Shown here piece by piece: positions 21,455 to 28,412 of a stretch of 64,000 nucleotides of DNA. The notes beneath the pieces are model-generated. The model saw nothing but the letters and a program-made list of their open reading frames with translations, was not told the DNA's origin and did not search any database. How positions within the stretch are numbered: position 1 is the first letter of the stretch; the number at the start of each line of letters is the position of its first letter. This DNA comes from Octopus vulgaris (Eukaryota), in contig OX597819.1 of assembly GCA_951406725.2 (NCBI GenBank), positions 90,954,001 to 91,018,000 on the forward strand, in the 5' to 3' direction. The position numbers and the translations under genes are program-made.

Positions 21455-22190
21455 TAAATAAATTCATTACAATTTTATTGCAATTCTCTTTTTTGTTTTT
21501 TCATTTTTACTAAAAAAAAAATTATATAAAATAAAAGTTTCTGCAATTGGCATCTCGTACAGACATTTTAAAAAGACTAAATTGAATGCAGAGGTCAGGA
21601 TGATTTCATGAAAGACTTTTTGAAAAAAATTTATCAATGGATTGAAGTTTTGAGAGGGGGTGGGGGAACAGAATTTTGAGGGGAGGGGAATACGGTTGTA
21701 GATCAACCGAGCACCTTGAAAAAAAAAACTTATAAAAAAAAAAAACAACTTAATATTACTACCCTTTCGATGTTTACACTGAGGGAGGAAAAAAAAAAAT
21801 CTCTTGAGGTAAAAATGTTGAAAGTTTTCTTTTACCCCCCACCAGTGTCGAGAAGAGTTTCTTTTTTGTTCCCCAATACCAAGATGGCCAAAATATTTTT
21901 TGTTGCTTTTCATTTTACTACAAAATTACTCTTTTTTTTCAATCTATAAATGGGAGTCTTTTTCCTTAATATAATAGATTATTATATATCTCAAAAGCTT
22001 GAAATAACCATCATCCAATTAATTCAGAGTCCGTGAAACGAAAACAAGTCAAGAGATCCGTCGTATGTACAAATGTAAATTTTTTTTTTTTGTTGGTAAA
22101 TTTTTTTTTTCTAAAAAAAGTTAGGAAGTAGTTTTTTCTTCCAGCTTTCTTTTAAAAAAAATATTTTTTTTTTCTTTTATGGAAGGAGAT
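21455..22190 (-). other. Probable BTG 3'UTR ending at an AATAAA polyadenylation signal
   Basis: Minus-strand AATAAA at 21474-21479 followed by a U-rich downstream element (TGTTTCTTTTTAATTTATATTTTTGTTT). The region is repeat-free and contains several ATTTA pentamers and a TGTACATA Pumilio element at 22064-22071. Confidence 0.6.
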
Positions 22191-22832
22191 TTAACTAAAT
22201 ACACAAGTGGCCAAGTGTTTCATTGAATCTCCGGTAATGGGTAAGGAATTGATAAATTGATCCTTACAAGAGGAAAGTAGGGCAGTCCCTTTAGACTCTG
22301 ACTGAGATGTTGATGGTGAGGAGATGGTGAGATTGGTAGTGGTGTTGTTGTTGTTGGTGTTATTGTTTGGTCTCGGTGTGATGATGGAACTGTTGGAGAT
22401 GGAGGAAGAGAAGTTAGAAGTGTACGTAGTGTTGTTAGTGTTGTTGCCGGGCGTGCTACAAGACTCCAAACTACTGGAACTTGTGCCCCGGTAAAGTATT
22501 CCTATGCTGCCGTTTTCACCGATTCTATAAGAAACGTCCAGTGGATCTATCCACACAGTCAATTCACGAGGGAAGAATGTGAAGATTTCTTCCTCTGTAA
22601 ATCCGCACCTCTCGCCAGCTACTTTAATCAGAGGATCCATTTTGTGATTCATCCGGAGGCATCGGTAGCCACTGCCTTTGTTGGGTTTCTCCGGGAACCA
22701 ATGATCTCTATAGTGACTCAGAAGAAGGGACTGTAGGTAACATTTGAATAAATCTGTTTTCTCCGTACATATGGAGTGGGTCCTGAGAATACTGGACAGA
22801 AATTCGGTAGCGCTTGCTACTTCGTTCATCAT
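22191..22832 (-). CDS. BTG: BTG/Tob family anti-proliferative protein, BTG1/BTG2-like, 213 aa, single coding exon
   Basis: Translation shows the APRO domain: EVASATEFLS, HYRDHWFPEKPNKGSGYRCLRMN (box A), FPRELTVWIDPLDVSYRIGE (box B), NGSIGILY (box C-like, cf. DGSICVLY of vertebrate BTG1/2), and a C-terminal SCKDQF resembling BTG1 SCKEEL. The track ORF starts at a TTG (22871); the first in-frame ATG is 22832 (context gcACGATGATG, purine at -3). Stop TAA at 22191-22193. The family call is secure, but orthology to BTG1 versus BTG2 cannot be resolved. Confidence 0.96.
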   Translation of the reverse strand: MMNEVASATEFLSSILRTHSICTEKTDLFKCYLQSLLLSHYRDHWFPEKPNKGSGYRCLRMNHKMDPLIKVAGERCGFTEEEIFTFFPRELTVWIDPLDVSYRIGENGSIGILYRGTSSSSLESCSTPGNNTNNTTYTSNFSSSISNSSIITPRPNNNTNNNNTTTNLTISSPSTSQSESKGTALLSSCKDQFINSLPITGDSMKHLATCVFS

Positions 22833-23300
22833 CGTGCTGACAAAAACATTCAGAGATGGAACTTCAGTCAAAAGAAGGGATTAGCACAACGCAGAAGCAA
22901 TTTAAAAATTAAATTATATAATTATTGGTTTTCTTTTTCTTGTTGGTGTTTCGGTAGAGGTTCAGTTGAATACTGTTAGAATTATGAAGAACTTTCTGGC
23001 TTTTTCTAAAACAGTTGGCTTAAGTTTACGCTTCCGAAGAAAAGAGAAAAAAACGTAGATTTTCTTGCGTGAAGATAACAGACAAATAGGGGGGAAAAAG
23101 AATCAATTTTGTTCTCTATCCAACAACAGTCTGTTTGGTATATATATATACTTTGGTGGGTTTTTTTGTTTTTTCTTGGTTTTCTTTGAGAGCTGTAAAA
23201 AGTGGTTCTTTGTTTGGTCGCCAGTAAGGTAGGAAGAGAGAGAACTGCAGAAGCGTAATGGACGTATATATCAACAACAGGAACACAACTAACGCCAAAC
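22833..23300 (-). other. Probable BTG 5'UTR (about 450 nt)
   Basis: No minus-strand ATG between 22850 and 23342, although several are expected by chance at this base composition. Inr-like TTAGTT at 23287-23292. The TSS position is inferred. Confidence 0.6.
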
Positions 23301-23320
23301 GACAGAGGAGTAGGACGAGC

Positions 23321-23424
23321 AATAATATAAGGGAACTGACGTCATAAAACGATGACGATTTTGTCTAGCTATCCAATCAGATTCGGCTATTCACCCTCTC
23401 CCCCCATTTTCATACCATATATGG
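23321..23424 (-). promoter_or_regulatory. Putative BTG proximal promoter: TATA-like element, full CRE, half CRE, CCAAT box, CArG box
   Basis: TATA-like TTATATTATT on minus at 23321-23330; palindromic TGACGTCA 23337-23344; TGACG 23353-23357; CCAATCAG 23373-23380; CCATATATGG (CC[A/T]6GG) 23415-23424. All fall within about 100 bp, just upstream of an ATG-free leader. Confidence 0.75.
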
Positions 23425-24298
23425 TTGTTAACTCAGCAGTCAATGTTATGACACAGATTTCCCTACATACACAACAACACTCATGTTACATTTGCATACG
23501 GCGAAGCACACAACACACAGATACACACATATATATATACATACATCAGTATATACACTAAATGCGCACGCACATACATACAAACACCTAGATACTTCCA
23601 CGATGATACGCGCACACATCACTCTACGCACCTTTCCCCCCCCCCATCCTACACACAGAAACACACACATATCCAATCACGAAGATACGCATCCATGTCC
23701 CTCCCTTCTCTCCCCTCCCCATTGCATACGCAGCCACATGCATACATCTATGGTGATACTCTCATATCTAAGTACTTACACCCACACATACACACAGAAA
23801 TATATATTCCCCACCACATACATACCAGACTGTATTTAGTATGTAATTTTTATTGTTGCTACCGTCTTGTCAGCCATATTGGCTCTTTTCTCTCAAAATT
23901 CTATAGTTTATTTGTTTTTCTCAGTTTCAACTAAAAAAAAAAGCTTCCACCGGTGATGTTAAATTAATTCCGTACATTTGATGAAAATATATACATGTAT
24001 ATATACATATATATATTTATATTTATACCATCTAATATAAATATAATATATTACAGCTGGTTTGTTTCAAAGAATTCTTATTAGTTTCGTTGTGTGTGTG
24101 TTTTTTTTTTATGTAGTTTCATAAATAGCAAACTTGGTAGATTTAGTTCTTTCCTCTATTCTTGTGTTTGTATATATATATGTTTGTTCGGAAACTAAAA
24201 GTCCATTAGAAATAATTTCATAGGGAATAAAATTAACTCATCTCTCAGTACTTGGTACTTTTTAATCAGTGCCGGAGAGGATGAAAGGGAGGGAGTTG

Positions 24299-26948: not shown

Positions 26949-27363
26949 TAAATATTAATGAATAAATTTATCGGGGTATAGGGTTTGTTTATATCAGTCC
27001 CCACATCTCCCTTTGTTTACTTGCTGTTCACCTAAATAACACAGAAACATCAGCCACGGGAAAACCTCAGCCTACACTAAAAATAGCAGCTACGTGTCTC
27101 AACTAAAAATAAAACAGGATGGTCATAGGAACGTCTATGATCATAGGCCTGCGAGAAATTGAGGCTGACTGCTGAACAACAAAATAACATCAACATGACT
27201 TAGAACCAAAAAAAAAAACCAACGCGCACACGCACGTACTCCTCCACTATACACGAATATAGAGAGGGAGGGAGAGAGAGGAGGAGAGAAGCACTCTCGC
27301 ACGCGCACACCACACCACAACATAACACAAGCATTACAACGTGCGGCTTGTTTGTTGCCAAAG

Positions 27364-27470
27364 TGATCGAGGTCTACGTGATCGTCGTATCGTCTAGAAA
27401 TAACAACCAAAGCACTTGATCGAGGTCTACGTGATCGTCGTACAGTCTAGAAATAACAACCAAAGCACTT
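27364..27470. repeat. Recent 53-bp tandem duplication
   Basis: TGATCGAGGTCTACGTGATCGTCGTA[TC/CA]GTCTAGAAATAACAACCAAAGCACT repeated twice with 2 differences. Confidence 0.95.
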
Positions 27471-28412
27471 TCGGGCCCCGTAATACCATCTCTTACGATG
27501 CAAGCGAAGATTAAACAGGGGTAGTCTGAGATAAATATTTCCAAAACAAAACGAAACTACCAAACAGCAGGAACAGTAGTTTCAGCTTTTTAACACACAC
27601 ACATACACACAGATAAGAAGGGATGTGTAATTTGACGGTTTTGATGAGTAAAGATAGCTAAAATAATGGGGCTCTTAGCACTGTATACAGTAAACTCATT
27701 AAATATGATCTTGATGGCAATGGCCTCAATGGTCGTGTGTGTGTGTGTGTGTGTGTCATTTAGCTTTATTTCAAGATTTTTTTTTTGCTAATAGAATGTG
27801 TGTGTGTATTTATGTTTGTATATGTATGTATTTTTGTCTGTGTGTGCGCGCGCACGTTTCCTAACCATGTAGTTTCGGGTTCAGTCCCACTGCGTGGAAC
27901 TTTAGACAAGTGTCTTCTATTACCTCGGGCCAACTTAGAGTAAATTTATAAACGCAAAGTGATGTGTATGTATGTGTGTTTACCTCTCCGCCTTAACGTC
28001 ACGTGTAATTTTTGAAAACACATGTCAACACCATATAAGAGATATTCATTTTTAATCTTCCATTAAAAGATATCTACGAAACAAATGAGTCTGGTACAAG
28101 AGGGGCATCTGGCCATAGAAAATGTGCCTCCACTTTTGTTTGAGTCCCCCTCCCCTTGCAAGCATGGACAAGTGGATGTTAAAATGATGATGATGATAGA
28201 GAGAGAAATTTGGTGTTGGAAACAGGAGAAAGTAGCACATATATATTAATTTATTAGATGCAAAGCTAGATAAGTTTGCATTATCTTAACAGCGAATACA
28301 TATATCATCCATATCTACATATGTGACAAAGAAAGGTATATAAAATACCATGCTTAAATGATGATGTATATATATACACATATATATGCATACATTTATA
28401 TATATATATATA

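Follow-up and report, generated by a model that had tools for sequence, protein, structure and literature searches.

A cluster of promoter motifs in Octopus vulgaris, at positions 23321 to 23424 of the 64,000 nt stretch of DNA analyzed (hereafter the window), probably is the real proximal promoter of a BTG1/2-type gene. It carries a module conserved in clams that likely binds SRF, NF-Y and CREB/ATF; a quick rise of the mRNA on cell stimulation is likely, and the encoded protein is predicted to hasten the removal of poly(A) from other mRNAs. Judged by its letters, the promoter is of a conserved SRF/NF-Y/CREB type. Since the motifs are real, lie at the true start of the transcript and recur in two clams, quick switch-on by cell stimulation is likely. 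What the analysis adds is the mapped start and the conservation of the module between octopus and clams; the kind of promoter and the gene family are already known.

The ends of the transcript were taken from assembled contigs of four octopus RNA runs (X6, X10, X12 and X14, among 24 listed), which were chosen for containing the gene and whose contig depth cannot rank genes. The X14 contig ends at position 23300 with a 24-letter loose end. We take this end to be a SMART-type template-switch adapter, and thus to mark the 5´ end of the cDNA, placing the main transcription start on the minus strand at 23300, at a pyrimidine-purine step and where the initial annotation had predicted it (near 23290-23300). 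The assignment is based on one adapter-ended contig and two nearby contig ends (X12 at 23313 and X6 at 23286), not on CAGE. The contig from the very deep X10 run extends upstream to 23506, and a faint piece covers 23552-23642; the X10 contigs over 23301-23642 could come from minor starts upstream of 23300, from upstream antisense RNA or from carried-over DNA. Non-templated poly(A) joins were found at 21459 in X10, X12 and X14, with cleavage 15 nt after an AATAAA poly(A) signal (21474..21479, minus strand). A single X12 contig covers 21459-23313, and no splice joints were found in the four RNA runs; together with the start and the poly(A) site, this defines an unspliced mRNA of ~1.84 kb and bears out the earlier description of the coding region as intronless.

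The coding sequence (22191..22832, minus strand) specifies a 213 aa protein of BTG1/2 type and is preceded by an unspliced 5´ UTR of 468 nt (22833..23300, minus strand). This leader had been described as ATG-free, but it contains one upstream ATG, at 22849, which opens a 6-codon uORF (MFLSAR-stop, 22829..22849, minus strand) whose stop overlaps the main ATG. The eight relative loci checked showed no matching uORF within 40 nt of their starts, and the element probably is ordinary. At 22903, X6, X10, X14 and X4 (DNA, from another organism) have an additional AAA that the window and X12 lack, which could be a leader polymorphism or an assembly slip. The 3´ UTR (21459..22190, minus strand, 732 nt) had been called AU-rich, a label that was not confirmed: its A+T content is 72% compared with 65% for the window, its five AUUUA motifs (one at the cleavage site) compare with a shuffle mean of 3.1, with 37.5% of shuffles reaching at least 4, and it contains no AU nonamer. 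Two nonamers (21433 and 21453) lie past the poly(A) site. A 4890-letter X6 contig passes this site and continues ~2 kb beyond 20500, representing either read-through or a longer 3´ UTR form that would include both nonamers, and the X17 run contained only a diverged 3´ UTR piece of BTG.

Motif mapping placed all of the elements of the cluster where the initial annotation had seen them. In transcript order, for this minus-strand gene, these are a CArG box, ATTGG, a half CRE, a full CRE and TATATTAT. The CArG box CCATATATGG, a predicted SRF site, occupies 23415..23424 (-115 to -124, no strand assigned), and the CCAAT box CCAATCAG, a predicted NF-Y site, lies on the plus strand at 23373..23380 (-73 to -80), reversed relative to the gene. 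The half CRE (TGACG) is at 23353..23357 (-53 to -57) and the full palindromic CRE TGACGTCA, a predicted CREB/ATF site, at 23337..23344 (-37 to -44), both again without strand. The TATA-like element TATATTAT (23322..23329, minus strand), which had also been proposed, has its first T at 23329, or -29, and one mismatch to TATAWAWR. Full CREs and CArG boxes each number two in the whole 64 kb window, and dinucleotide shuffling of the window brought a CRE and a CArG box within 100 nt of each other in 3 of 300 trials. The CArG-TGATTGG-CRE triple had one match in the octopus genome, and none in the control, and thus is unique. Further upstream, a second NF-Y-type CCAAT with the TATCCAATCA context repeated lies on the plus strand at 23673..23680 (about -375), and the most CpG-rich 400 nt stretch of the window (24 CpG, within 27000-27700), ~4 kb upstream of the BTG start, is a possible enhancer or another promoter.

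Motif conservation in other molluscs had been set beforehand as a check, and the module was found in two of the relatives. These relatives were the best 80 of 399 BTG-coding stretches from metagenome contigs, most of them too short for a promoter and only nine with at least 1 kb upstream; the promoter comparison therefore is of octopus with metagenome mollusc and arthropod loci. Runs X4, X17, X18 and X22, taken for closer cephalopods, had no cover of 23214-23474, a gap that says nothing for or against conservation in coleoids. Loci L043 and L061 each carry a perfect CArG box (CCATATATGG in L043, as in octopus; CCTTATTTGG in L061), followed by ATTGG and then TGACGTAA, in the same order and orientation as in octopus and with spacers of 37/24 and 39/23 nt, respectively, compared with 37/28 nt in octopus. 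The proteins of both group with those of Mercenaria, Mya, Dreissena and Mactra (support 100/99), identifying the loci as heterodont clams, two species of one lineage. The spacer letters of the clam modules cannot be aligned with those of octopus, the half CRE is placed differently, the clams having one between CArG and CCAAT, and no TATA was found after either clam module, such that the octopus TATA is not conserved, the clam starts being unmapped. By sequence, the order, orientation and spacing of CArG, CCAAT and CRE are conserved between octopus and clams, and we judge such conservation of proximal promoter order and spacing to be unusual.

The ordered module, a pattern written after the clam sequences were seen, arose in 0 and 1 of 2000 shuffles of the respective clam upstream regions, and a module in any order and orientation, which is nearest to the wording of the initial annotation, arose in 1.1% and 0.85%. 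Across the 2.8 Gb of octopus DNA, the spaced pattern has 15 occurrences, compared with 21 in the control. Among nine relative loci tested, ATTGG followed by TGACGT within 15-40 nt was present in five (L043, L061, L086, L093 and L040), of which L093 is copepod-like and L040 is mite-like, the pair in the latter possibly lying within the UTR; the CRE has the letters TGACGTCA in L086 and L093. No such pairing was detected in two others of the nine (L041 and L048), the ant loci L089 and L090 had half sites only, around an ATTGG, and the module was absent from two mite-like loci. CArG boxes were seen in 2 of these best 80 of 399 loci, of which nine have the 1 kb of upstream sequence, and the CCAAT and CRE sites are kept more widely than CArG among the relatives.

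The identification of the gene as a BTG gene was upheld by a Pfam match to the BTG/APRO domain (PF07742, boxA and boxB, residues 3-115, E 1e-36). The domain is followed by a boxC-like NGSIGILY, a Ser/Thr/Asn-rich linker and a short conserved C-terminal tail. The protein shares 99% identity with a cluster named Octopus sinensis BTG2-like and 77% with the Argonauta protein, and its best PDB match is BTG2 (E 2e-38, 135 bits, compared with 93 bits for Tob1). The boxC also compares with DGSICVLY in BTG2 and kGpvkVLY in Tob1; over a longer stretch, octopus has NGSIGILYRGT and mammalian BTG2 has DGSICVLYEEA, with three substitutions relative to human (D>N, C>G and V>I) among the first eight residues. 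The tail of the 213 aa protein is short and without PAM2, and Pfam reports BTG alone. From these sequence comparisons, the protein belongs to the BTG1/2 subgroup of the BTG/Tob family. Protein and PF07742 searches each gave one match in the octopus genome, a lower bound given that the searches were exon-wise and may miss a spliced Tob or BTG3/4. A short C-terminal motif outside the Pfam domain is common to mollusc and chelicerate BTG1/2: SCK..., with LA..V.S closing the protein.

Like octopus BTG, mammalian BTG2 (PC3/TIS21) and BTG1 have an APRO domain with boxA and boxB, a boxC-like strand and a short tail. Vertebrate BTG1/2 genes have an intron; octopus BTG differs from the mammalian genes in being intronless, in its one detected copy and in its long Asn/Thr/Ser linker. 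In human BTG1/2, boxC is described as mediating PABPC1 binding and deadenylation (PMC8632095). By analogy, we infer that octopus BTG would bind CAF1 and PABPC and stimulate deadenylation.

Vertebrate c-fos and Egr1 promoters combine an SRE, a CRE and a TATA box. The octopus promoter had been likened to that of c-fos, and the likeness stands for the CArG box, CRE and TATA-like element, all within ~130 nt of the start of a compact gene. It is a loose analogy in other respects, because octopus BTG has a single CArG box with no flanking Ets/TCF site, and an NF-Y-type site between CArG and CRE; its product also is an mRNA-decay cofactor, whereas those of c-fos and Egr1 are transcription factors. 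No Ets core was found within 30 nt of the CArG box in the octopus BTG, L043 or L061 promoters, which makes action of SRF through MRTF more likely than through an Ets/TCF partner.

A closer comparison is offered by octopus egr, whose promoter (G000:C2, about 56031700-56032200, minus strand, loci L131 and L134) lies ahead of a short first exon and an intron of ~10 kb. Like BTG, it has the same-lettered CArG, an ATTGG, a TTACGTCA CRE variant and TATAAA; unlike BTG, it has the long intron and three CArG boxes, two lettered as at BTG and one beside an Ets-type site. Induction of egr1 in cephalopods has been reported (10.1101/2025.10.16.682951; PMC9712504), and the octopus egr promoter is itself a candidate activity-reporter fragment. 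A second EGR-pattern match (L129) was rejected as a generic zinc-finger array. The srf and jun loci were located at L135 (G000:C10) and L158 (G000:C8), the latter presumably jun, as named from its sequence. Octopus jun, which is intronless, has a CArG box 455 nt before the ATG, two CCAAT boxes and two TGATGTCA sites, and octopus srf, whose product was confirmed against solved SRF, carries a pair of CArG boxes, 384 and 365 nt ahead of its ATG. Mammalian srf is autoregulated, and by analogy the twin boxes suggest autoregulation of octopus srf. All three of the classical SRF-target orthologues examined (egr, jun and srf) thus have a CArG box within ~600 nt of the ATG, compared with a background of 3 in 131 kb of unselected DNA (~1.4% per 600 nt), indicating that the CArG grammar is in use in octopus. 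A bZIP exon that we take to be CREB-like also is present in the genome, and fos was not clearly identified among eight bZIP matches.

Genome-wide, CArG and CRE pairs number 555, compared with 397 in the control. A single dispersed repeat family, in which CArG and a full CRE lie ~90 nt apart (for example L004 and L006-L008), accounts for 51 of the first 100 matches listed, counted by eye, and could be spreading signal-responsive sites. The pair was rejected as a genome-wide finder of immediate-early genes: 20 hand-picked non-repeat loci gave no identifiable gene, and 13 ORFs from them gave three domain matches, all to transposons. Non-repeat pairs at the centers of L145 and L151, as well as L138, L144, L152 and L157, two with TATAAA downstream, look like promoters or enhancers. 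Counts for ATTGG and CRE (778, control 3490) apparently are inflated by repeats and uninformative. The weight of the case for the BTG promoter accordingly comes from its location at the start and its conservation, not from the motifs alone.

In the mechanism we favor, NF-Y on the reversed CCAAT box would keep the promoter open, CREB/ATF at the CRE, which abuts the TATA-like box, would relay cAMP and Ca2+ signals, and SRF at the CArG box would relay growth-factor or actin signals. The short unspliced mRNA could be made fast, and the APRO domain of the protein would bind CAF1 and its boxC-like strand PABPC, such that shortened poly(A) tails would damp the response wave. The response probably is general, to growth factor, injury, stress and neural activity, and not specific to neurons.

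Among other accounts of the same sites, the one that survives best, although we consider it unlikely, is high steady expression, with NF-Y and CREB/ATF1 acting basally and SRF-MRTF in muscle or by cell state, the gene marking quiescent or differentiating cells and not acute stimulation. CCAAT boxes and CREs are common in constitutive promoters. BTG mRNA was present in all four octopus RNA runs, though these were selected for it, the AU-rich elements are unenriched and the CArG box has no adjoining Ets site, all of which would fit such expression, as would the quiescence signature to which Platynereis btg1/2 is reported to be tied (PMC12669781). The TATA-like box at -29, the compactness of the unspliced gene and the CArG grammar shared with egr, jun and srf argue against it.

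Less probable still is a promoter that answers mainly to slower stress (the integrated stress response, ER stress or toxicants), in which an ATF- or C/EBP-type bZIP protein would act on the CRE together with NF-Y and the CArG box would be secondary. The clam TGACGTAA sites, which are of a CRE/C-EBP hybrid type, point in this direction, as does the wider retention of CCAAT and CRE than of CArG, but the octopus site is a perfect CRE and the CArG box is held at fixed spacing in octopus and clams. The ER stress elements ERSE and ERSE-II have the forms CCAAT-N9-CCACG and ATTGG-N-CCACG, respectively, and neither had a match in the octopus, L043 or L061 promoters. Upregulation of Aplysia BTG1 in aged neurons and stress activation of bivalve BTG1 have been described (PMC8840921) and would be in keeping with a stress response. 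A chance grouping of short motifs, for which one could cite the modest excess of genome-wide CArG and CRE pairs over the control, is largely refuted by the position of the cluster at the mapped start and by its recurrence, with order and spacing preserved, in two clam orthologues.

Rapid induction by stimulation, the reading we prefer, has precedents in mammals: seizure induction of mouse Btg2 needs SRF (PMC5513048), Btg2 is activity-induced (PMC3720722) and mammalian BTG2 is induced by NGF, depolarization and cAMP (PMC13133959; CREB, SRF and CCAAT are absent from its text). Our literature search, with most subscription journals outside its reach, found no published induction experiments for any cephalopod BTG and no paper on a molluscan BTG promoter. 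In the available text, an octopus immediate-early gene preprint tests creb and egr1 only (bioRxiv 10.1101/2025.10.16.682951) and a second study uses egr1 as an activity marker in cephalopods (PMC9712504), with no occurrences of btg in either. A snail immediate-early gene screen that used 5-HT, caffeine and anisomycin has no mention of BTG in its text or supplement (PMC6584072), beyond which 37 names appear in figures. BTG likewise was not found in the supplement parts examined for PMC7665899, PMC5602346, PMC9712504 and PMC6584072, the remainder of which may list it. Squid btg1 is reported to go down under acidification (PMC11202396), which does not bear on induction.

Octopus BTG is a putative immediate-early gene and a candidate neuronal marker; its usefulness as a marker of neuron activity is possible, if somewhat doubtful. 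Similarly tentative is the broadest reading, that in animals BTG1/2 is ancestrally an immediate-early gene, with a CArG-CCAAT-CRE module whose order and spacing have been kept since the cephalopod-bivalve split and whose CCAAT-CRE half reaches arthropods. In that case the ~130 nt octopus fragment might be used directly as an activity-dependent promoter, and the mRNA could mark neural activity in cephalopods. Very few activity markers are at hand in cephalopod neuroscience. BTG can be tested directly as a second one, and its promoter is a candidate for reporters: the gene is compact and lacks introns, its start is mapped, and the motif module is conserved across molluscan classes. If the induction is true, mRNA-decay feedback through BTG would date far back in the immediate-early program and would not be a vertebrate addition.
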